A DNA stretch of 64,000 nucleotides from a virus: positions 32,001 to 96,000 of the IMG/VR virus record IMGVR_UViG_3300022843_000001; one strand, given 5' to 3'. Below, piece by piece: positions 8,225-16,664 of the stretch. A program made the translations under genes and the position numbers. Position 1 is the stretch's first letter. Every line of letters begins with the position of its first letter. Under the pieces are notes generated by a model. It was given only the letters and a program-made list of their open reading frames with translations. It did not search any database and was not told the DNA's origin.

Positions 8225-9412
8225 TTAACCCTTTACACAAAGCACTTGTTTAATTTCATGTACAATCTCTACCAAATCGGCCTGAGCTGCCATTACATCA
8301 TCGATAGGTTTATACGCACTTGGAGTCTCGTCTATAATACCTTCGTCTATTCTACACTCCACACCACGAACTGCTTCTTCGTGTTGCTGCATAGTTACTA
8401 ATTTCTTCGCTTGGGTTCTGGACATAACCCGACCGGCGCCATGACTACAACTGTGGAAAGATTCCTTGTTTCCCAAGCCTTTAACTATGAATGATCTCTG
8501 TCCCATGCTACTTGGAATGATACCATATTGCCCTTTCTTAGCAGAAACCGCACCCTTTCGAGTAACCCACACATTTTCGTTGTAATGGTTTTCTTTCTGT
8601 ACATAGTTATGATGACAGTCAACAGTCAACTCATCTACCGTAAAAGGTTGTGTATGTTTTTCAAGCACTTCTAAAACATTTTTCATCATCAAAGCACGAT
8701 TCATCTTCGCGAATTCTTGTGCCCAGTCAACGGCTTCGATATATTGATCGAAGTAGGTCGAGTTTTCTGGTAAATATGCCAAGTCCTCGTCTGGCAAAGA
8801 AATAAAATACTTCTCCATTTCCAACTTTGCTTTCTCAATAAAGTATCTGCCAATAGCATTACCCACACCACGACTACCTGAATGTAGCATTACCCACACC
8901 GAATTGTCTGCTTTCTCGATACACACTTCGATGAAATGATTTCCACCACCCAAGGTGCCTAGATGAGCAATATTGTTTGTCTTCTCGACAGGGGCAAATT
9001 CACGCAAATTATCAAAGCCTGAACTTAAATGTTTATTCCAAGTATCGATAACTTCCTTGGGTAATTTCTGGACGTTATGTTTCCCTTGTCCTACAGGAAT
9101 CACCGCTTCAATGTCTAATCTCATCGATTTTAGGTTAAAAGGCAAGTCAGACGCAGTTAAAGACGTTTTAACGGCTTGCATGCCGCAGCCAAGGTCAACG
9201 CCAACTGCAGACGGGATAATCGCTTTTTTGGTGGCCAGAACTGTTCCTATAGCGCAACCTTTACCTAAGTGGGCATCAGGCATAGACGCAATCCATTTGT
9301 GTATGAATGGCATATCAGCAAGGTTCATTAATTGTTCTTTTGTGTTTTCCGCAAAATCAACACCATCACACCAAGCCTTTACTACATGGCCGCGGCCAGT
9401 TAAAACTTTCAT
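8225..9412 (-). CDS. rtcB: RNA 3'-phosphate/5'-OH ligase RtcB
   Basis: PDAH.GKGC.IG, GVD.GCG, GTLGGGNHFIE, HSGSRG.G, HHNY, RKGA, SCSHGAGR, DE.P.AYK. Confidence 0.95.
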   Translation of the reverse strand: MKVLTGRGHVVKAWCDGVDFAENTKEQLMNLADMPFIHKWIASMPDAHLGKGCAIGTVLATKKAIIPSAVGVDLGCGMQAVKTSLTASDLPFNLKSMRLDIEAVIPVGQGKHNVQKLPKEVIDTWNKHLSSGFDNLREFAPVEKTNNIAHLGTLGGGNHFIEVCIEKADNSVWVMLHSGSRGVGNAIGRYFIEKAKLEMEKYFISLPDEDLAYLPENSTYFDQYIEAVDWAQEFAKMNRALMMKNVLEVLEKHTQPFTVDELTVDCHHNYVQKENHYNENVWVTRKGAVSAKKGQYGIIPSSMGQRSFIVKGLGNKESFHSCSHGAGRVMSRTQAKKLVTMQQHEEAVRGVECRIDEGIIDETPSAYKPIDDVMAAQADLVEIVHEIKQVLCVKG

Positions 9413-9930
9413 TATTGTAACTCCTTTCCTATATTATTTTTGTTGAGACCTGCCGTATACCAAACAGGCACTGTATTAAATTTCCATGCAGCGAAGTAAC
9501 TTTTTTCTTCGACATAATACTTACGGTATGCATCGACAGCAGAAGTACCTTTGCAGTAATCTGGCATACACTGTGGCGGTTCGCGCCAACCTGCATCTGG
9601 AATACCTTTCGGTAATTTTCCAAGCAAGGTACCTAATTTTCTCCAAGACAAATGTACCTTGCCGTAACGTGCCGTGTATTGCTCCGAAAGGGATTGAAAC
9701 AAGTTATACATGTACATATATTGTTGCTTGTTTTCTCGCACCCATATAGTTGATGGGTGGTTTTTATGAGCGATTTTATATAGATCAGTTGATAATTCTG
9801 TACCTTCGTCGAGTATACGATGGGCAGTTGATAACATCTGTGCATATTCAAGAATCATTTTAACACAATGTTTGTCACAATGCATTGCTGCAGCAATCTC
9901 GTAATCATTGCTAAGATAAAATATATTCAT
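9412..9930 (-). CDS. Pyrimidine-dimer DNA glycosylase (endonuclease V-like) family protein
   Basis: MNIF.L.......A..HCDKH.VKMILE.AQMLSTAH, H.NHP.T.W, PQCMPD, AYR.YY. Confidence 0.8.
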   Translation of the reverse strand: MNIFYLSNDYEIAAAMHCDKHCVKMILEYAQMLSTAHRILDEGTELSTDLYKIAHKNHPSTIWVRENKQQYMYMYNLFQSLSEQYTARYGKVHLSWRKLGTLLGKLPKGIPDAGWREPPQCMPDYCKGTSAVDAYRKYYVEEKSYFAAWKFNTVPVWYTAGLNKNNIGKELQ

Positions 9931-10025
9931 AATTTAATTTGTTTCTCAATTTCAATACGTGTATTATATCATAAGGTGGGGGTTGTGTCAACAACTTAGT
10001 TGTTATATCGATATAACTGATAGTT
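9931..10025 (-). repeat. Early promoter cassette copy driving glycosylase-rtcB
   Basis: -35 9986-9991, -10 9963-9968, perfect palindrome GTTATATCGATATAAC 10002-10017. Confidence 0.85.
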
Positions 10026-10037
10026 ATATGGGGGAAT

Positions 10038-10112
10038 TGGTGGGCATGCTAGGGTTCGAACCTAGGATAGCAGATTCAAAATCTGCCGTGTTTCCTACTA
10101 CACTACACGCCT
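10038..10112 (-). tRNA. tRNA-Gln(TTG)
   Basis: GCAGA-TTTTGAA-TCTGC anticodon arm, TTCGAA T-loop, CCA. Confidence 0.9.
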
Positions 10113-10131
10113 ATAATTAGAATATACAATT

Positions 10132-10204
10132 TGGCGCTCCCGATAGGACTCGAACCTATAAATTCCCAGCTTCGTAGGCCGAGTTGCATCCAGTTGCCGA
10201 GAGC
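10132..10204 (-). tRNA. tRNA-Arg(ACG), shortened D-arm
   Basis: CTACGAA loop, GTTCGAGTC, acceptor GCTCTCG/CGGGAGC, CCA. Confidence 0.75.
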
Positions 10205-10209
10205 ATAAT

Positions 10210-10374
10210 TTAATAATTTTCGAATTTGCATTTATTGCAGTGGACGTGATGCCTATGGTCTTCTTTGTTTTTCTGGTCACAATTGGTTAGATTACCGGAC
10301 AAGCAATGAGGGCATATTTTACCTGCCTTCAATTTGTCTCGGAACTTTCTATGTTTACCGCTTCTATTAGACAT
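10210..10374 (-). CDS. Small zinc-ribbon protein, 54 aa
   Basis: Hand translation MSNRSGKHRKFRDKLKAGKICPHCLSGNLTNCDQKNKEDHRHHVHCNKCKFENY; GGA RBS; CxxC...CxxC. Confidence 0.6.
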   Translation of the reverse strand: MSNRSGKHRKFRDKLKAGKICPHCLSGNLTNCDQKNKEDHRHHVHCNKCKFENY

Positions 10375-10390
10375 TTCGTTTCCTATAAAT

Positions 10391-10480
10391 TGGCGGAAAG
10401 ATGAGGAGTCGAACCCCTAACGCTACTAACGTCACCACGGTATTCAACACCGTTTGCCGGCCTACCCAGCGGATCAATCC
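10391..10480 (-). tRNA. tRNA-Ser(TGA)
   Basis: ACGGT-GTTGAAT-ACCGT, long variable arm, G73, CCA. Confidence 0.85.
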
Positions 10481-10490
10481 ATAATTTAAA

Positions 10491-10588
10491 ACTGTCTCAG
10501 GATCGTGCCTGATTAACTGGGTTAAGGACCCATTGCATTATTGCTGTGTCATAGTGCACTAATCACAGAAATTATTATGCTAAACAGT
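10491..10588 (-). ncRNA. tRNA-like four-way RNA with enlarged D-position arm
   Basis: Closing stem ACTGTT/GACAGT, long arm with CTGTG/CACAG, TGGG-TCCTTAA-CCCA, TCAGG-CACGAT-CCTGA; no CCA. Confidence 0.4.
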
Positions 10589-10630
10589 GTGTTATAACAA
10601 GATTTTCTACTATATTCAGTAGATGTAATT

Positions 10631-10717
10631 TGGAAGAAGGTAGAGGTAACGATCCCCGAACGCTATAAACGATCCCTTGGGGTTCAAACCCAATTTGTGC
10701 CCAGCACGGTACCTTCC
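10631..10717 (-). tRNA. tRNA-Ser(TGA) second copy, ATCGTTA T-loop
   Basis: TTGGG-TTTGAAC-CCCAA, long variable arm, CCA. Confidence 0.8.
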
Positions 10718-10722
10718 ATTTT

Positions 10723-10796
10723 TGGTAGTCAATGTTGGAATTGAACCAACGTCTCAGGCATGTAAAACCTGTGCTAATCCCCTCAGCTAATCGACT
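10723..10796 (-). tRNA. tRNA-Val(TAC)
   Basis: CAGGT-TTTACAT-GCCTG, acceptor AGTCGAT/ATTGACT, CCA. Confidence 0.85.
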
Positions 10797-10801
10797 TTAA
10801 T

Positions 10802-10870
10802 TGGTGGGCCGAGAGGGTCACGATCCCTCTCTCTCCAAATTATGAGTTTGTTGCTTTCCCAGTTAAGCTG
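10802..10870 (-). pseudogene. tRNA(CAT) lacking a matching 5' acceptor strand, fused to upstream tRNA-like element
   Basis: D, anticodon (CTCATAA) and T arms and CCA present; the 5' strand expected to pair with TCGGCCC is replaced by the 3' end of the next element. Confidence 0.55.
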
Positions 10871-10950
10871 TACCAGCCGAGGGATTGAACCTCGTATTGG
10901 ATATCAAAGTGACGCCTTGACAATAATATCCTAGCAAACCATGCGCTGGC
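10871..10950 (-). ncRNA. tRNA-like element with extended anticodon-position hairpin
   Basis: GCCAGC/GCTGGT acceptor, GCA-TGGTT-TGC, GGATAT/ATATCC hairpin, CGAGG-TTCAATC-CCTCG. Confidence 0.45.
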
Positions 10951-10955
10951 ATTGA

Positions 10956-11026
10956 TGGTGGTGAGCCTAGGTATCGAACCTAACTGATCTGAGATATGAA
11001 CTCTGATTGGTCCCTGACCGCCCACC
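10956..11026 (-). tRNA. tRNA-Met or Ile2 (CAT), shortened D-arm
   Basis: TTCATAT loop, acceptor GGTGGGC/GCTCACC, CCA. Confidence 0.7.
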
Positions 11027-11033
11027 ATAAAAG

Positions 11034-11123
11034 TGGAGGAAGACGCTGAAATTGAATCAGACACACATTTCTGGTGCGATTTGTTTAGCAAACAATCCTA
11101 GTCACCAGACTAGATCATCTTCC
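11034..11123 (-). tRNA. tRNA-Ser(GCT)
   Basis: TTGCTAA loop, long variable arm, acceptor GGAAGAT/GTCTTCC, CCA. Confidence 0.8.
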
Positions 11124-11128
11124 GAAAA

Positions 11129-11199
11129 TGGCGACCCGATAAGGAATTGAACCTTACAAGACAACGTTTGGAGTGTCGTCACCGCCCAGCGGCCGAGCC
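11129..11199 (-). tRNA. tRNA-Trp(CCA), shortened D-arm
   Basis: CTCCAAA loop, G73, CCA; D-arm CCGC-TGG-GCGG. Confidence 0.75.
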
Positions 11200-11204
11200 A
11201 ATAT

Positions 11205-11280
11205 TGGAGGCAAATAAGAGAATCAAACTCTTCAATAACGAATTTGCAATTCGCACCCGTCATCAGCTGGGTCATCTGCC
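11205..11280 (-). tRNA. tRNA-Cys(GCA)
   Basis: GCGAA-TTGCAAA-TTCGT, U73, CCA. Confidence 0.85.
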
Positions 11281-11287
11281 GTAAAAT

Positions 11288-11359
11288 TGGTGGAGAATAT
11301 CGGTAACGATCCGATCCATCGACATTGCAAATGTCAAGTCTATCCCATACAGATTCCCC
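11288..11359 (-). tRNA. tRNA-Ala(TGC), ATCGTTA T-loop
   Basis: TTTGCAA loop and G3:U70 identity pair, CCA. Confidence 0.85.
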
Positions 11360-11457
11360 AAATTTGGTGGACCTTTTAAGAAGGTAGCCGAACCTTTATT
11401 CTATCGCGTGTTCCATATTACACCACATGCCGGACTCGAACCGGATCTCTAAGAATT

Positions 11458-11543
11458 TGGTGGTAGTGGAAGGATTCGAACCCTCAATGACTAGCATACC
11501 TGCGGGTTACAGCCGCGTACCCTTCCTAATGGGTGTCACTACC
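11458..11543 (-). tRNA. tRNA-Tyr(GTA)
   Basis: GCGG-CTGTAAC-CCGC, long variable arm, CCA. Confidence 0.9.
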
Positions 11544-12077
11544 TTTGTTTCTTTTCAATGTTCTAGTTGCATTGGTCACCGTTGCGGCACAACTAGAACT
11601 ACAATATTTGTTCTTTCGTTTTTTATAAGATATAGCATCATGACAATATTCACATATCTTAGGAGATTCTTTATATATAGCTTGAGTCTTATAATGTCGG
11701 GCATTAGCTTTTTCTGATGCCCCATTTTCATTAGCTATGCGCATTGCCTTTTGATTTTTAAGTTTTCTCAATTTCTCATTAGAGTTGATATAGTCCCATC
11801 CACCAGAACCACCTAATTTTAGGTTATAGGTATTAGATTCAGCAATGAAATCAAGATTAACAATTTCAGATTCCTTGTTAAACATTTCCTCTGGGTTGTC
11901 ATAAACGAATAAGATTTCTTTTGTGAATTTGTCTAATCCATGTTTGTCCTGAGCGTATTTTAAGTATTTTCCAGAACCCATATAATTGTCGTTCAAATTT
12001 TTGGTCTTATGTGTTCCAATATAGAACTTGCCATTGATTTGATTTGAAATCTTATAAACAGTGTATTTTATTTCCAT
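11526..12077 (-). mobile_element. GIY-YIG (Seg-like) homing endonuclease inside tRNA array
   Basis: [21 protein letters not shown]...YMGSG, YNLKLGG, C-terminal CEYC...YCSSSC; late promoter TATAAATA at 12083-12090; 3' end overlaps tRNA-Tyr. Confidence 0.85.
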
Positions 12078-12117
12078 ACATCTATTTATAATATTTCGAG
12101 TCTTGACTTCGACTCAA

Positions 12118-12191
12118 GGGAGCAGGTAGGGATAATCGAAATCCACTCAGCACGGCTTGGAAGGCCGGCGACTCACCTCGAGCTTACCTGC
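12118..12191 (-). tRNA. tRNA-Gly(TCC)
   Basis: CGGC-CTTCCAA-GCCG, acceptor GCAGGTA/TACCTGC, U73, ends CCC rather than CCA. Confidence 0.8.
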
Positions 12192-12203
12192 AAAAATAAA
12201 ACA

Positions 12204-12299
12204 CACGACAGACAGAGGGCGATAACAAATGGGCTTTAACGATATATCAGCATCATCCCTGCCGCACCTCGACGGCTTTTCTCTACTTCATCTGTCGTG
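12204..12299 (-). ncRNA. Structured non-tRNA element in tRNA array
   Basis: 9-bp closing stem CACGACAGA/TCTGTCGTG enclosing GCCG-TCGAGGTG-CGGC hairpin. Confidence 0.4.
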
Positions 12300-12305
12300 C
12301 ATATT

Positions 12306-12377
12306 TGGTAGCGGAAAGAGGACTTGAACCTCTGCTTCACAGGTTATGAGCCTGGAATGCAACCGTTGCGTTCCGCG
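12306..12377 (-). tRNA. tRNA-Met(CAT), initiator-like
   Basis: CTCATAA loop, unpaired C1:U72, CGCGG start, short D-arm, CCA. Confidence 0.75.
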
Positions 12378-12384
12378 TTAAAAA

Positions 12385-12449
12385 GGTCGAGAGCGCAGGA
12401 CTTGAACCTGACTATGATTCCCGTATAGGGACTTAACATTGTACTCTCT
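12385..12449 (-). pseudogene. Degenerate tRNA
   Basis: CAGG-TTCAAGT-CCTG T-arm and acceptor-like stem; D and anticodon arms collapsed. Confidence 0.45.
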
Positions 12450-12517
12450 ATAAATTGGCGGCAAACTTTCCATTCGCCTTGCTGATCACCTTGTACAAAG
12501 TGGTAGCATCTACATGT

Positions 12518-12593
12518 TGGCGACCCTTACGAGTTTTGATCTCGTTGCCTCCACCTTGACAGGGTGGCGCTCTCCCGATTGAGCTAAAGGGTC
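12518..12593 (-). tRNA. tRNA-Asp(GTC)
   Basis: CCACC-CTGTCAA-GGTGG, G73, CCA; T-loop ATCAAAA. Confidence 0.9.
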
Positions 12594-12602
12594 TTAATTT
12601 AA

Positions 12603-12781
12603 AATATTCTGTCAGGATGGTTGGACTCGAACCATCCATCTAAAGCATTTAGTCAGGACGGCTGGATTCGAACCAGCGTCTCCGCGTTCCAAACGCGGTA
12701 CTAAACCAAGCTCAGCTACGCCCGGACTAAATGCTCTATAAACGTGACTTACCAAGCTAACCTACACCCTGACACAATATT
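12603..12781 (-). ncRNA. Nested tRNA: tRNA-Pro(TGG) (12653-12725) inserted in the anticodon arm of an outer tRNA-Pro-like shell
   Basis: Inner cloverleaf CCGCG-TTTGGAA-CGCGG; 14-bp connector; outer acceptor TGTCAGGGTG/CATCCTGACA, own D-loop AGCTTGGT and T-loop TTCGAGT. Confidence 0.8.
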
Positions 12782-12788
12782 CTAAATT

Positions 12789-12864
12789 TGGTGCGTCCTC
12801 GAGGAATCGAACCTCGTTATCTGGTTCTTCAAACCAGCGCATTGACCACAACTGCCTAAGACGC
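12789..12864 (-). tRNA. tRNA-Phe(GAA)
   Basis: CTGGT-TTGAAGA-ACCAG, CCA. Confidence 0.9.
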
Positions 12865-12869
12865 GTAAT

Positions 12870-12944
12870 TGGAGCCCCTAGTCGGAATCGAACCAACTTA
12901 TCCGGATTACAAAACCGGTGCATCACCTTTTATGCTTTAGGGGC
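12870..12944 (-). tRNA. tRNA-Thr(TGT)
   Basis: CCGGT-TTTGTAA-TCCGG, CCA. Confidence 0.9.
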
Positions 12945-12948
12945 GTTT

Positions 12949-13103
12949 TGGCATTCCCGATAGGACTCGAACCCTGAACTTGACTTTAGAAGAATCGTGT
13001 GATTTCCAGTTTTACCATACACGCATTATTTGTTATCATGTAATATACACGTTACCTTATATCGACTTATTGCAACGTGCCTATCCAATTAGACTACGGG
13101 AAC
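12949..13103 (-). tRNA. tRNA-Arg(TCT) with ~80-nt insertion containing a second D-arm
   Basis: Acceptor GTTCCCG/CGGGAAT 155 nt apart; D-arm GTCT-AATTGGAT-AGGC; anticodon GATT-CTTCTAA-AGTC; T-loop TTCGAGT; CCA. Confidence 0.6.
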
Positions 13104-13147
13104 ATTAAATTGCACAGTAACATTGCTGTTGTTACTGTTTTAAAAAT

Positions 13148-13224
13148 TGGCTCCAAACCTAGGCTACGATCCTAGCACGCTTGCATTAACAGTGCAATGC
13201 CCCCACCTAGAGGGCCCGTTTGGA
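13148..13224 (-). tRNA. tRNA-Asn(GTT), ATCGTAG T-loop
   Basis: TTGCA-CTGTTAA-TGCAA, G73, CCA. Confidence 0.9.
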
Positions 13225-13300
13225 ATAAATTGGCTCAACCGTATTTTTTTATAAGGCAGCTGAGTTCCTCCTTAGATGATTTACAATTTTTTTTCTACGA

Positions 13301-13546
13301 TCAAGAGTTCGAACTCAAAGAAAGTTTATAAAAATTGTTGCTGCAGCACTGACATCTCAGTTGAATCGTAAGAATACTTTTTGATGGTGATCTGCAAACC
13401 ATATGCAGCGTTATTACCATTAAAAAGTAATCTTTGATTGTTTTCTTAAAATTTGACTTACCCTTTCGAGTATAATCTTTTTTCTTGTCACGCATTACAA
13501 CAGACTTGTTATAAGTACGAGCATGTTTTGCCACTGGATTTTTCAT
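13301..13546 (-). CDS. Small basic protein (MKNPVAKHARTYNK...)
   Basis: Strong GGAGGA RBS before Met24 of the ORF-track entry. Confidence 0.55.
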   Translation of the reverse strand: MKNPVAKHARTYNKSVVMRDKKKDYTRKGKSNFKKTIKDYFLMVITLHMVCRSPSKSILTIQLRCQCCSNNFYKLSLSSNS

Positions 13547-13737
13547 CCCGTTCCTCCTATGAAAGATTAATAAAGGCATCTGATTGGCTGCCCAGCAACT
13601 GAGCACTCGCACCAATCATATCCTCGCGGTGATTCTATCATCAAATAGTTAGCGAATCACCGCTTTGTATATTCTAATTTATTGAAGATCATTCATCAGA
13701 GGAACACCCCGATGTATTTCTTATTTCTTATACATGT

Positions 13738-13766
13738 ATTATAACATGGTTTTTCGAACTTGTCAA
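13738..13766 (-). promoter_or_regulatory. Sigma70-type early promoter (one of ~30 in window)
   Basis: TTGACA-17-TATAAT. Others at 3214-3242, 4371-4399, 7723-7751, 13958-13986, 14392-14420, 16396-16424, 18090-18118, 20747-20775, 28986-29014, 29857-29885, 39197-39225, 43906-43934, 56064-56092, 59893-59921, 61191-61219, 63757-63785. Confidence 0.85.
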
Positions 13767-14023
13767 TCTTTTTTCTTAATTTTCTTTATAATTAATTGTT
13801 ATATCGTTATAATTATAAAGAAAATTAAGGCCTGATTTGCAGGCCTTAACCATATCTTATGTCGTCTTCTTCTATATTTTTCTATTTTTCAACTAAAGGA
13901 ATTCTTAATTCTTGATTCTTGATCAGCATTTACAAATTCCCAATTTCCTATACATTCATTATAACAGGATTTAGTACCTGTGTCAACAACTAATTGCAAT
14001 ATTCTTATAATTAGATTCAGTAC

Positions 14024-14191
14024 TTATCGTAGTGAACTAATGATATCAGCGATGGAAGCGGGTTTAGCTTGACTGTACGTCTTTACAGCATATTCATAAT
14101 TATTATCAAGCATTTTTGCTACATCATTCTCATTGTTTCCCCATTTTAATAACAATTTAGTTACCTTGGATTTGAATTTATTCTGTATCAT
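14024..14191 (-). CDS. Small early protein, 55 aa (MIQNKFKSKVTKLLLKWGNNE...)
   Basis: Hand translation; directly behind cassette. Confidence 0.55.
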   Translation of the reverse strand: MIQNKFKSKVTKLLLKWGNNENDVAKMLDNNYEYAVKTYSQAKPASIADIISSLR

Positions 14192-14291
14192 AATATTTCT
14201 CAATTTCTATACATGTATTATACCATAGTCCCGGCAATATGTCAACAACTAATTTCAGTTTAGTTAGAACTTATGGTTATATCGATATAAT
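14192..14291 (-). repeat. Early promoter cassette copy
   Basis: -35 14240-14245, -10 14217-14222, near-palindrome 14276-14291. Confidence 0.85.
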
Positions 14292-14292
14292 T

Positions 14293-14366
14293 TGGTTCTC
14301 AATGATGGTAACGATCCACCGTCGTTCGGTTATCAGCCGAATGCTCTACCTTTGAGCTAATCGAGA
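14293..14366 (-). tRNA. tRNA-Ile(GAT), ATCGTTA T-loop
   Basis: TTCGG-CTGATAA-CCGAA, CCA. Confidence 0.9.
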
Positions 14367-14445
14367 ATAATTTCTCATTTCCTATACATTTATTATAACA
14401 GGATTTTGTGCCTATGTCAACCTTTATTTTTAATTTATTCAGTCC

Positions 14446-14479
14446 AAAAAAAACCCCAATCTGTGAAGAGTTGGGGTTT
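14446..14479 (-). terminator. Intrinsic terminator of putative attenuator 2
   Basis: AAACCCCAA-11 nt-TTGGGGTTT then TTTTT. Confidence 0.85.
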
Positions 14480-14509
14480 GGTATTCTTGAATATGGTTTT
14501 TATATCAAG

Positions 14510-14620
14510 TTATACTTTCCCCAAGCCAATATCGGCCATGCTCGCCCAATTGCCGCGATCATTGATCGTCGGATATTGAATCGATATAAACTGTTGTCTT
14601 AGGGAAGTCATTTTGCTCAT
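14510..14620 (-). CDS. Putative leader peptide 2, 36 aa
   Basis: MSKMTSLRQQFISIQYPTINDRGNWASMADIGLGKV; ends within the 5' strand of an antiterminator hairpin. Confidence 0.6.
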   Translation of the reverse strand: MSKMTSLRQQFISIQYPTINDRGNWASMADIGLGKV

Positions 14621-14668
14621 TAATTTTGGTTATGTATTATATATACAAGTTTTGTGCTTAATCTAAAT

Positions 14669-15112
14669 TTATTTTAAACTAAATGATTCACCACATCCAC
14701 ATGCCTGTCCTGCCAGTGGATTGTTAAATGTCAAGCCAGACTCGAATAGTTTCTTAACGTAGTCAACTTCCATTCCATCGATAAACAATATAGATTTCTT
14801 ATCAACAAATATAGACACGCCGTCATGAGCATCCGTGAACTTGTAATCATATTCATCAGGCGTCTCCACGAATTCAACCAGATATTGATAACCACCACAA
14901 CCAGCACCTTCTACACCAAATCGAACTCCTATAGTCTCGATTCCACGGTTATCAATCTCCCATTTGATAAATTGTGATGCATCTTTGGTTAATGTCAAAC
15001 CCACAACCTCAAGTTTTTGTGCAGGTATATTGAAATTTATGTCTGGCTCGATATTCACGATATCTCTGCTTGCTTTGCGGACTGCAGCATAGTAATGTGC
15101 TTTCTGATCCAC
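14669..15112 (-). CDS. iscA: Fe-S cluster assembly A-type carrier (IscA/HesB family)
   Basis: GVRFGVEGAGCGGYQY, VDKKS...IDGMEVDY, NNP....CGCGESFS. Confidence 0.9.
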   Translation of the reverse strand: MDQKAHYYAAVRKASRDIVNIEPDINFNIPAQKLEVVGLTLTKDASQFIKWEIDNRGIETIGVRFGVEGAGCGGYQYLVEFVETPDEYDYKFTDAHDGVSIFVDKKSILFIDGMEVDYVKKLFESGLTFNNPLAGQACGCGESFSLK

Positions 15113-15276
15113 CTCATAAACATAATGGCCCGATCTGAGGCCATTAATGAAGCGCCGCCCACATCAGCAATAGGTACTGGGAAATTAAAACCACAAGCAG
15201 TAGAGTACCACAATTCCCCTTCTCTGTAATATTGGAAGGTTACTTGCTTGTTCTTGACCATGTCTTTGATATTCAT
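15055..15276 (-). CDS. Conserved phage hypothetical protein (MNIKDMVKNKQVTFQYYREGELWY)
   Basis: AGGA RBS; the longer ORF-track start is just read-through of tRNA-Leu. Confidence 0.6.
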   Translation of the reverse strand: MNIKDMVKNKQVTFQYYREGELWYSTACGFNFPVPIADVGGASLMASDRAIMFMRWIRKHITMLQSAKQAEIS

Positions 15277-15301
15277 AATATTTCCTGTTTCCTGTTTAAA
15301 A

Positions 15302-15378
15302 TGGTACGTCGAGCGGGAGTCGAACCCGCAACATCTGGATTTTAAGTCCAGCGCCTCTGCCAATTGGACCACCGACGC
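15302..15378 (-). tRNA. tRNA-Leu(TAA)
   Basis: CTGGA-CTTAAAA-TCCAG, short variable arm, CCA. Confidence 0.9.
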
Positions 15379-15384
15379 ATAATT

Positions 15385-15462
15385 TGGTACCACCACTCGG
15401 ATTCGAACCGAGACATTAACTACTTTTGAAACAGTCCCCTCTGCCAATTGGGGTATGGTGGT
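15385..15462 (-). tRNA. tRNA-Leu(CAA)
   Basis: ACTGT-TTCAAAA-GTAGT, CCA. Confidence 0.85.
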
Positions 15463-15489
15463 ATTATTCTAACCTAAGTCAGATTAATT

Positions 15490-15564
15490 TGGTGTCTCTA
15501 GGGGGAATCGAACCCCCTACTCTTGGGTGAAAGCCAAGTGATCTAACCGGTAATCCATAGAGAC
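15490..15564 (-). tRNA. tRNA-Glu(TTC)
   Basis: CTTGG-CTTTCAC-CCAAG, CCA. Confidence 0.9.
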
Positions 15565-15570
15565 GTAAAA

Positions 15571-15646
15571 TGGTGGGTCCACAGAGATTCGAACTCTGAT
15601 AACCGGATTAAAAGTCCGGGATAATTGCCCTTTATATTATGGACCC
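15571..15646 (-). tRNA. tRNA-Lys(TTT)
   Basis: CCGGA-CTTTTAA-TCCGG, CCA. Confidence 0.9.
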
Positions 15647-15682
15647 AGGTCCGCTTTGTTATCGTGTAGCGTTCACGCATTT

Positions 15683-15765
15683 TGGTACGAGGAGAGGGAC
15701 TCGAACCCTCAAAGGCCTGGTTTCTAAAACCAGTAGATCTGCCAATTCTCATTAGCCACCCTCGC
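15683..15765 (-). tRNA. tRNA-Leu(TAG)
   Basis: CTGGT-TTTAGAA-ACCAG, enlarged D-loop, CCA. Confidence 0.85.
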
Positions 15766-15782
15766 ATTAAATCCTCAACTTA

Positions 15783-16010
15783 TTAAGTTGTTTTTCTTTT
15801 TCTATATCGTAGACGGTTGCGGCAAGCGTAAGCAGTCCCGCGGTTATTATCAACTCCCATCATCAAATTAGTGATCTCATTAAATACAGCAACTGGCACC
15901 TCGCCATTATCCATAATATGACTATTGGCAAGTTTACCTTTACCCATCTTACGAAGATGTTGCATTTTGACCTTAATCATAACGGGCATTGTTTTCCATA
16001 TAACCATCAT
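15783..16010 (-). CDS. Small hypothetical protein in tRNA block 1
   Basis: GAGA RBS, fills inter-tRNA gap. Confidence 0.45.
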   Translation of the reverse strand: MMVIWKTMPVMIKVKMQHLRKMGKGKLANSHIMDNGEVPVAVFNEITNLMMGVDNNRGTAYACRNRLRYRKRKTT

Positions 16011-16024
16011 ACTATTCTCTTATT

Positions 16025-16102
16025 TGGTACATCTGACGGGGATCGAACCCGCATTTCCCTGATTGAAAGTCAAGTTGCCTATTCCAGTTAGCAGACAGAT
16101 GT
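16025..16102 (-). tRNA. tRNA-Glu(TTC) second copy
   Basis: CTTGA-CTTTCAA-TCAGG, CCA. Confidence 0.85.
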
Positions 16103-16122
16103 ATAATTCTTTTAATATATTT

Positions 16123-16200
16123 TGGGGTGTAATCTGGGTTTCGAACCCAACCCTCATGAGTCACAGTCATGCATGCTTCCAATTACACCTATCACACCCC
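16123..16200 (-). tRNA. tRNA-His(GTG)
   Basis: CATGA-CTGTGAC-TCATG, G-1, CCA. Confidence 0.9.
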
Positions 16201-16218
16201 AAAATATATTCTACCCAT

Positions 16219-16249
16219 AAAAAAACCCGCGATATTTCTATGGCGGGTT
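16219..16249 (-). terminator. Intrinsic terminator of putative attenuator 1, immediately upstream of first tRNA
   Basis: AACCCGC-12 nt-GCGGGTT then TTTTT. Confidence 0.85.
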
Positions 16250-16283
16250 AACGTTGTCTCTTATTATAAGTTTGTTACTTTCT

Positions 16284-16358
16284 TTAAGACAATGCATCCC
16301 CGCTACACAATTTCTCGTGTTTTAAGAGTTGTTCTAGTTTTAAAATTAATGTTTTCAT
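16284..16358 (-). CDS. Putative leader peptide 1, 24 aa
   Basis: MKTLILKLEQLLKHEKLCSGDALS; preceded by late promoter TATAAATA (16364-16371) and sigma70 promoter (16396-16424). Confidence 0.6.
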   Translation of the reverse strand: MKTLILKLEQLLKHEKLCSGDALS

Positions 16359-16427
16359 ATGTTTATTTATACGTTTTATTATTTAATATATAGTTATTAT
16401 AACAGGTTTTTACACCTTTGTCAACCT

Positions 16428-16664
16428 TTATTTTGGTGCTTCGTGAGACCAACCCATATCTTTCATTTTTAGATGATCTGCTTTAACCTTTGCCATTTTG
16501 CTTTTTCCTGTCTTAGGGTCATACATCATGTGCGGCTCAAAATCATCTTCTTTGACACATTTATTAACCATCTTACCTTTGTTCTTTCCAGTACCGTCCT
16601 GCTTACCGTCTTTCTTATAGCCGTCCCAGCAATCTTGTTCTCTAAAAAATTTAAATGTTTTCAT
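16428..16664 (-). CDS. Putative head internal protein (CWDGY motif)
   Basis: N-terminus MKTFKFFRE resembles T4 capsid-targeting sequence. Confidence 0.6.
   Translation of the reverse strand: MKTFKFFREQDCWDGYKKDGKQDGTGKNKGKMVNKCVKEDDFEPHMMYDPKTGKSKMAKVKADHLKMKDMGWSHEAPK

Follow-up and report, generated by a model that had tools for sequence, protein, structure and literature searches.

Three candidate leader-ORF attenuators associated with tRNA genes in a phage genome with a T4-like gene set

Leader-peptide attenuators control amino-acid operons of Enterobacteria, among them those headed by trpL, hisL, leuL and pheL and by the multivalent leaders thrL and ilvL. Here we describe three units of similar design that are associated with transfer RNA (tRNA) genes in the virus record IMGVR_UViG_3300022843_000001; two of them lie in the window, the 64,000-nucleotide (nt) stretch under analysis (bases 32001–96000 of the 198,785-base-pair (bp) record), and the third elsewhere in the same genome. 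As in leader-peptide attenuators, a short open reading frame (ORF) rich in the codons that would be sensed is combined with an intrinsic terminator, and the 5' strand of a competing antiterminator would be covered by a ribosome standing at the stop codon. The nearest counterparts are the multivalent ilv and thr leaders, in which several amino acids are sensed at once. Unlike in these systems, the genes behind the terminator are phage tRNA genes and not biosynthetic or synthetase genes, and because tRNA genes would be the regulated genes, the units are best seen as a variant that falls outside the classical attenuator set. Attenuation control is known for amino-acid genes; for tRNA genes we found no description, full-text literature searches having returned none of leader-peptide attenuation of either tRNA genes or phage tRNA arrays. 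On balance, we lean towards reading the units as ribosome-dependent (leader-ORF) transcription attenuators of tRNA genes.

All three units lie on the minus strand, as do both tRNA blocks of the window: unit 1 precedes block 1, unit 2 stands between block 1 and block 2, and unit 3 precedes a second tRNA cluster outside the window (Table 1). They share one order of parts, namely the ORF, the base of the antiterminator, a hairpin (P2) that carries the stop codon, the strand common to the two competing folds, and the terminator. The leader ORFs have 24 (unit 1), 36 (unit 2) and 22 codons (unit 3), and their final codons constitute the 5' strand of the antiterminator. An earlier note on this DNA, made from the letters alone, had claimed this overlap for the two ORFs in the window, and the last codons of both do pair with the 5' strand of the terminator; leader ORF 1 (16358–16284) likewise sits where it had been placed, between a sigma-70 promoter with 12/12 consensus positions (16424–16396) and an intrinsic terminator (16249–16219). 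In unit 1, GCGGG pairs around P2 with CCCGC, which belongs to the terminator 5' strand, and thereby excludes the terminator; the two competing folds are nearly equal in energy (-30.3 and -29.4 kcal/mol). In unit 3, a perfect complement of 8 nt to the terminator 5' strand exactly flanks the P2 hairpin, and the terminator is built like terminator 1. A covariance model derived from unit 1 matches unit 3 over the full length (25.8 bits, E about 0.003–0.04) and unit 2 weakly (18 bits). Units 1, 2 and 3 are probably paralogues.

To model the switch, the nascent RNA was folded up to the terminator loop, either naked or with a ribosome masked at a given codon, for unit 1, for unit 2 (in the window and in the related contig L116) and for unit 3. 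The antiterminator was the minimum-energy fold of the naked RNA and also with the ribosome masked at codons 6, 10 or 14, whereas masking it at the stop codon allowed the terminator to form. Folding of the leaders thus bears out the suggestion that antiterminator and terminator alternate as they do in attenuators, the modelled position of the ribosome acting as the switch.

The same design is visible in two related metagenomic phages. Unit 1 is known from three lineages (the window, L008/L116 and the L003 type), unit 2 from two and unit 3 from one. Across the three lineages, 8/20 pairs of unit 1 have changed on both sides, a count reached by 0/500 shuffles, and slid controls are low. The window and L116 differ in unit 2 in a concerted manner, changes in the base strand of the antiterminator being matched by changes in the shared strand and in the terminator 3' strand, so that covariation is present in both units. 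In a scan of the whole genome (199 kb), we defined the full design as a terminator, a flanking complement around a hairpin and an ORF whose stop lies at that hairpin; it was found at 3/3 tRNA-adjacent terminators and at 1/53 other candidates. The genome contains 12 strong terminators, and the longest upstream complements are those of the three units (8, 6 and 5 nt); reversing the strand does not give a valid control for this upstream-complement scan. What is unusual is the specific geometry and not pairing as such. The attenuator geometry put forward in the earlier note is real, then, and the observation is stronger than first stated because there is a third unit, because the strands covary in relatives and because the design, which occurs three times in the genome, is almost confined to positions before tRNA genes.

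These results bear on a plainer account, in which each leader is just an ordinary small gene of the phage with a partial or operon-end terminator behind it, leaky read-through reaches the tRNAs constitutively, as it does the delayed-early genes of T4-type phages, and the complements arise incidentally or help to stabilize or process the RNA. Terminator 2 does clearly end the block-1 operon, with a promoter behind it, the L003 element stands between two protein genes, the core of the leader-2 peptide is well conserved, and a general pairing test does not discriminate the units from other terminators. We nevertheless regard this account as quite unlikely, since it would leave unexplained the distribution of the full design in the genome scan, the exact placement of the perfect complement around P2 in unit 3, the joint change of three strands in unit 2, the extreme composition of leader 1 described below, and a block 1 that has no promoter of its own after terminator 1, so that the level of read-through sets its expression.

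Table 1. Positions of the units, promoters, terminators and tRNA genes; coordinates refer to the window, except for unit 3.
Feature	Position	Strand	Remarks
Unit 1 sigma-70 promoter, 12/12 consensus, extended -10	16396..16424	-	kept in L008, absent in L003
Unit 1 T4-type late-promoter motif TATAAATA, 5 nt before the ATG	16364..16371	-	spacing identical in L008
Unit 1 leader ORF, 24 codons + stop	16284..16358	-	ORF of 24-25 codons kept in L008 and L003
Unit 1 hairpin P1 within the ORF, 6 bp, GAAA loop	16305..16320	-	2/6 pairs changed on both sides
Unit 1 antiterminator base, 5' strand GCGGG, codons 19-20	16299..16303	-	invariant between window and L008; 3/5 pairs in L003
Unit 1 hairpin P2, stop codon atop the 5' strand	16251..16295	-	6/9 pairs changed on both sides; stem swapped in L008
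Unit 1 intrinsic terminator	16219..16249	-	5' strand 16249-16243 common with the antiterminator
Block 1: tRNA-His, Glu, Leu(tag), Lys, Glu, Leu(caa), Leu(taa) + ORF of 75 amino acids	15302..16197	-	ARAGORN + Rfam
Unit 2 leader ORF, 36 codons (33 from the second ATG)	14510..14620	-	homologue L116:10523-10627, in-frame indels
Unit 2 conserved hairpin within the ORF	14553..14572	-	one C-G to U-A compensatory change relative to L116
Unit 2 antiterminator base, 5' strand, 6-nt helix	14519..14524	-	covaries with shared and terminator 3' strands in L116
Unit 2 hairpin P2 with stop codon	14481..14515	-	L116: other sequence, same position
Unit 2 intrinsic terminator, end of block-1 operon	14446..14479	-	
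Sigma-70 consensus promoter between terminator 2 and tRNA-Ile	14392..14420	-	same order in L116
tRNA-Ile, sole tRNA reachable by terminator 2 read-through	14293..14366	-	
Plain strong terminator, 12-bp stem, ahead of the remainder of block 2	13815..13851	-	would halt read-through
Unit 3, outside the window, ahead of the second tRNA cluster (Asn, Gln, Met, Ser)	G000:C1:140195-140054 = L194:1554-1697	-	

If ribosomes operate the switch, the leaders must be read, and their frames behave as though they were. The leader ORFs remain open at 22–36 codons across lineages, with L008/L116 and L003 all keeping them; the stop codon stays on P2 despite a 1-nt deletion and a complete stem swap in L008 and despite in-frame indels of 3 and 9 nt in L116. 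In the window as in L008, the motif TATAAATA stands 5 bases ahead of the leader-1 ATG, and it is enriched on the coding strand of the genome (43 observed against 18 expected). In this respect unit 1 departs from leader-peptide attenuators, since the position of the motif may allow transcription to begin at the ATG itself; if late transcripts start as in T4, leader 1 would therefore be a leaderless mRNA. Further departures are that no Shine-Dalgarno sequence precedes the leaders and that units 1 and 3 have no evident 1:2 anti-antiterminator, because of which an untranslated leader should read through in these two units.

Alternatively, the elements could be non-coding, structured RNAs whose ORFs are incidental; they might be set free as small RNAs at the terminator, or a protein or RNA factor might work the switch. 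This reading draws on the strong covariation of P1 and P2, on the missing Shine-Dalgarno sequences and on the nucleotide conservation of leaders 1 and 2, which the hairpins partly explain. It also has precedents: small stable RNAs are encoded in the tRNA region of T4, and attenuator RNAs such as rnTrpL can act in trans. We consider it very improbable, as open frames and a stop on P2 would hardly be expected to survive the stem swap, the frameshifting deletion and the in-frame indels, and as the amino-acid compositions of the leaders are non-random relative to the downstream tRNAs. Nor did the leaders of the window match a recognized family, T-box included: over 9900–16500, Rfam gave no hit to them, whether the gathering score or a limit of E up to 1 was applied. 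T-box riboswitches are similar in that a choice between terminator and antiterminator reports on the status of tRNAs, but here there is neither a specifier loop nor a T-box bulge, and an ORF overlaps the switch.

The composition of the leaders is best read against the tRNAs behind them. The earlier note had divided the array by amino acid, and this partition is real, since block 2 has no tRNA for Lys, Leu, Glu or His. In block 1 (16197–15302), ARAGORN and Rfam concur in calling tRNAs for His, Glu, Lys and Leu only. The earlier note's list of sixteen amino acids for block 2 was upheld in part: Ile, Asn, Thr, Phe, Pro, Asp, Tyr, Val and Gln are called by ARAGORN and Rfam at default thresholds, Arg, Met, Ala, Cys, Trp and Ser are low-scoring and appear only at the relaxed ARAGORN threshold, and tRNA-Gly is found neither by ARAGORN (default or relaxed) nor by Rfam. 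The partition recurs in L008/L116, where the first block reads His, Glu, Lys, Lys, Glu, Leu, Leu, Lys, plus a Leu tRNA read by eye. Two further observations concern the tRNA genes themselves. The segment 10100–13030 (minus strand) has about ten tRNA-like genes (Arg, Met x3, Ala, Cys, Trp, Ser x3–4) that are atypical, as they are found only with relaxed ARAGORN settings or below the Rfam gathering score, and tRNA-Lys(ttt) of block 1 (15571–15646, minus strand) is about 92% identical over 47 nt to a tRNA-Lys of KVP40-like Vibrio phages, the sole near match of the region to deposited phages.

As background for composition we used 54,048 windows of 16 residues from the phage's own ORFs of at least 100 amino acids. 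Residues 2–17 of leader 1 include 13/16 Lys, Leu, Glu or His, as had been noted, and 0/54,048 proteome windows reach 13 (four reach 12). The leader of L008 also has 13/16, with a three-base change from Leu to Glu that stays within the set. In L003, where no tRNA block follows the element, the count is 8/16, the element has no promoter of its own and the base helix is weaker. Composition thus follows the presence or absence of the tRNA block over three lineages, and leader 1 fits block 1 far better than chance would allow. Leader 2 holds, as claimed, 15/16 of the listed block-2 amino acids and neither His nor Glu; it includes four residues of the Lys/Leu/Glu/His set, and only 0.4% of proteome windows combine such coverage with at most four of these residues, so that we rejected the notion that the coverage is trivial. 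Its L116 homologue also covers 15/16, with a different amino acid missing and one residue of the set. In leader 3, 5 of the 15 sensor residues are Asn or Gln, a level found in 1% of windows. The matches of leaders 2 and 3 are suggestive only, and each leader is the most enriched of the three for its own downstream tRNA set.

Attenuators of this kind might instead report general translation capacity, that is, the availability of ribosomes or elongation factors or the speed of elongation, the compositions being by-products of constraints on the peptide or the RNA. The geometry of the switch is independent of which codons are slow, Lys, His and Phe accompany Asn and Gln in leader 3, leader 2 takes in almost every amino acid, and most of the tRNAs whose amino acids leader 2 samples are beyond the reach of unit 2. 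All of this would suit a general sensor, yet such a sensor gives no reason for a leader 1 without equal in the proteome, for the radical Leu-to-Glu replacement of L008 that keeps to the set while the lineage without a tRNA block is relaxed, or for the enrichment of each leader for its own downstream set. We hold this alternative to be unlikely.

The reach of each terminator sets limits to the wiring. No promoter was seen between terminator 1 and the tRNAs of block 1, so expression of the block depends on read-through; a -10-like hexamer just before tRNA-His was not counted as a promoter, since L008 does not keep it. The block-1 operon continues with an ORF of 73 amino acids, an IscA-like gene and leader 2, and is closed by terminator 2. 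The IscA-like gene (14669–15058, minus strand) encodes an IscA/HesB-type iron-sulphur cluster protein (Pfam Fe-S_biosyn), and in L003 such a gene directly follows the leader-1 homologue. In unit 3, tRNA-Asn and tRNA-Gln are the next genes, and a copy of TATAAATA stands between tRNA-Gln and tRNA-Met of the second cluster. Units 1 and 3 have no promoter between the terminator and the genes to be regulated, whereas unit 2 does.

In the window, six perfect TTGACA-N17-TATAAT promoters, all with an extended -10 and alike in their flanks, lie on the minus strand (16424, 14420, 14245, 13986, 13766 and 9991); they resemble a repeated early-promoter cassette dispersed across the tRNA region. That at 14420–14392 separates terminator 2 from block 2, so the statement that each block lies directly behind a terminator holds for block 1 and not for block 2. 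Read-through of terminator 2 would extend to tRNA-Ile and an ORF of 59 amino acids and then meet a second strong terminator about 440 bases past tRNA-Ile; the perfect promoters at 14245, 13986 and 13766 and this terminator precede the remainder of block 2, which is predicted to be driven from the promoter at 13766. Given the promoter after terminator 2 and the plain terminator after tRNA-Ile, unit 2 cannot gate block 2 as a whole, and the proposal that leader 2 switches that block had to be given up. As read from the sequence, unit 2 is a real switch by its structure and not the gate of block 2.

In the mechanism that we propose, RNA polymerase would transcribe the short ORF, then hairpin P2 and then the terminator. 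On naked RNA, or with a ribosome held within the first ~14 codons, the end of the ORF would pair with the terminator 5' strand; the resulting antiterminator, a long helix with interruptions that encloses P2, would let transcription continue into the tRNA genes. A quick ribosome that has arrived at the stop codon, in or atop P2, would cover the antiterminator strand, the terminator would form and transcription would end. Slow decoding of the leader would raise tRNA output and fast decoding would lower it. Unit 1, with mostly Lys, Leu, Glu and His codons, would gate the His-Glu-Leu-Lys block and unit 3 the Asn and Gln tRNAs, while unit 2 would close the block-1 operon and add at most some read-through into tRNA-Ile.

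From the observed anatomy, covariation, composition statistics and association with tRNA genes, we infer that the leaders are translated, that the ribosome controls the switch and that the response has some tRNA specificity. The phage probably makes more tRNA when ribosomes read the leader codons slowly. Sensing of specific tRNAs is credible for unit 1, and most credible there of the three; for unit 3 the indications are suggestive, and for unit 2 and block 2 it is not workable in the form first stated. The central idea of the earlier note, that the phage turns on its tRNAs when these become limiting, accordingly keeps the match of leader 1 with block 1 and loses the switching of block 2 by leader 2. 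A more ambitious version remains tentative: three paralogous attenuators, each codon-tuned to its own subset of tRNAs, could provide an amino-acid-resolved feedback on tRNA supply, with leader 1 leaderless in the late transcript. Each subset would then be transcribed more only upon slow decoding, for example after cleavage of host tRNAs or during late synthesis with its high demand. A link of the units to host anticodon nucleases is speculation.

Several observations weigh against attenuation by translated leaders. In unit 1, the five pairs at the base of the antiterminator do not themselves covary across the three lineages, a test of how probably a terminator 5' strand pairs with upstream RNA failed to separate the units from other terminators, and the lineages are few (three, two and one for units 1, 2 and 3). 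No Shine-Dalgarno core precedes the leader in any of the three units; this is weak evidence, because just 28% of crudely called starts in the genome have one. The signals of coding and of structure are confounded in leader 1, since several third-position, synonymous-looking changes are at the same time compensatory changes of P1. Leader 3 also has Lys, His and Phe codons, and a test for all four downstream amino acids was not significant. L003 keeps the element between two protein genes, with no tRNA genes behind it, and unit 2 is followed by strong promoters of its own. Among public runs, no RNA runs containing the locus are listed.

The genome itself has few close neighbours. The record has direct terminal repeats at its ends, and the public runs that contain it are salt-lake metagenomes. 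Its T4-like gene set includes a family B DNA polymerase, topoisomerase II, DNA ligase and RtcB; the polymerase is about 50% identical to that of the nearest cultured phages, and our searches found no close cultured relative of the record. Scans of viral contigs with DNA patterns returned, besides unrelated matches, only the L003 and L008 contigs, and protein-anchored searches of viral and metagenome contigs added L116 alone, whose leader is identical to that of L008. The L003-type copies are all identical, and P0005, P0007 and P0009 (62–69% identity) have no tRNAs at the locus. No relatives of the unit 3 neighbourhood were found, and the contigs of four salt-lake runs contain no variants in the leaders. 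Weaker matches of the covariance model (L123, L028, L149 and L012) were rejected on account of coding-like sequence and the lack of a U-tract. Such units were not seen in the tRNA-array phages L109–L111 or in the KVP40-like Vibrio phage V09.

Other features of the tRNA region are recorded here in their own right. At 13986–13815 (minus strand), a perfect promoter, a 15-codon ORF and the terminator with a 12-bp stem form a transcription unit of ~130 nt that has no antiterminator and may be a small RNA or a mini-gene. Further on, a 5' untranslated region of ~200 nt (13735–13550, minus strand) lies between the promoter at 13766 and an ORF of the DUF7230 family (13546–13301); part of it is conserved in both relatives (L003:4510–4600 and L116:11520–11620), it matches no Rfam family, and the DUF7230 ORF has no ArfA match in Pfam. 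In the tRNA region of L116, an element of ~42 nt occurs twice (11417–11460 and 11707–11750), each time behind an early promoter. A gene for a GIY-YIG (Seg-like) endonuclease lies inside the tRNA region of the window (11526–12077, minus strand), as in T4, and a gene for an RtcB RNA ligase is found just downstream of the array (8225–9412, minus strand).

The arrangement can finally be compared with that of T4-type phages, in which terminators proximal to early promoters separate immediate-early from delayed-early genes. Common to both are a strong early promoter followed by a short first ORF and a terminator, and genes that depend on read-through. The units described here differ in that the end of the ORF is tied to the terminator by a competing helix that is conserved, in that the composition of the ORF mirrors the tRNAs, and in that the design is confined to tRNA genes to the extent given by the genome scan. 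Phage tRNA genes are usually viewed as constitutive helpers, which match codon usage or replace host tRNAs cut by defence nucleases. If our reading is correct, this phage would gauge the speed of decoding and adjust its tRNA supply accordingly, the logic of classical attenuation would extend to tRNA genes themselves, and units of ~150 nt would constitute a compact natural sensor of specific tRNA shortage.

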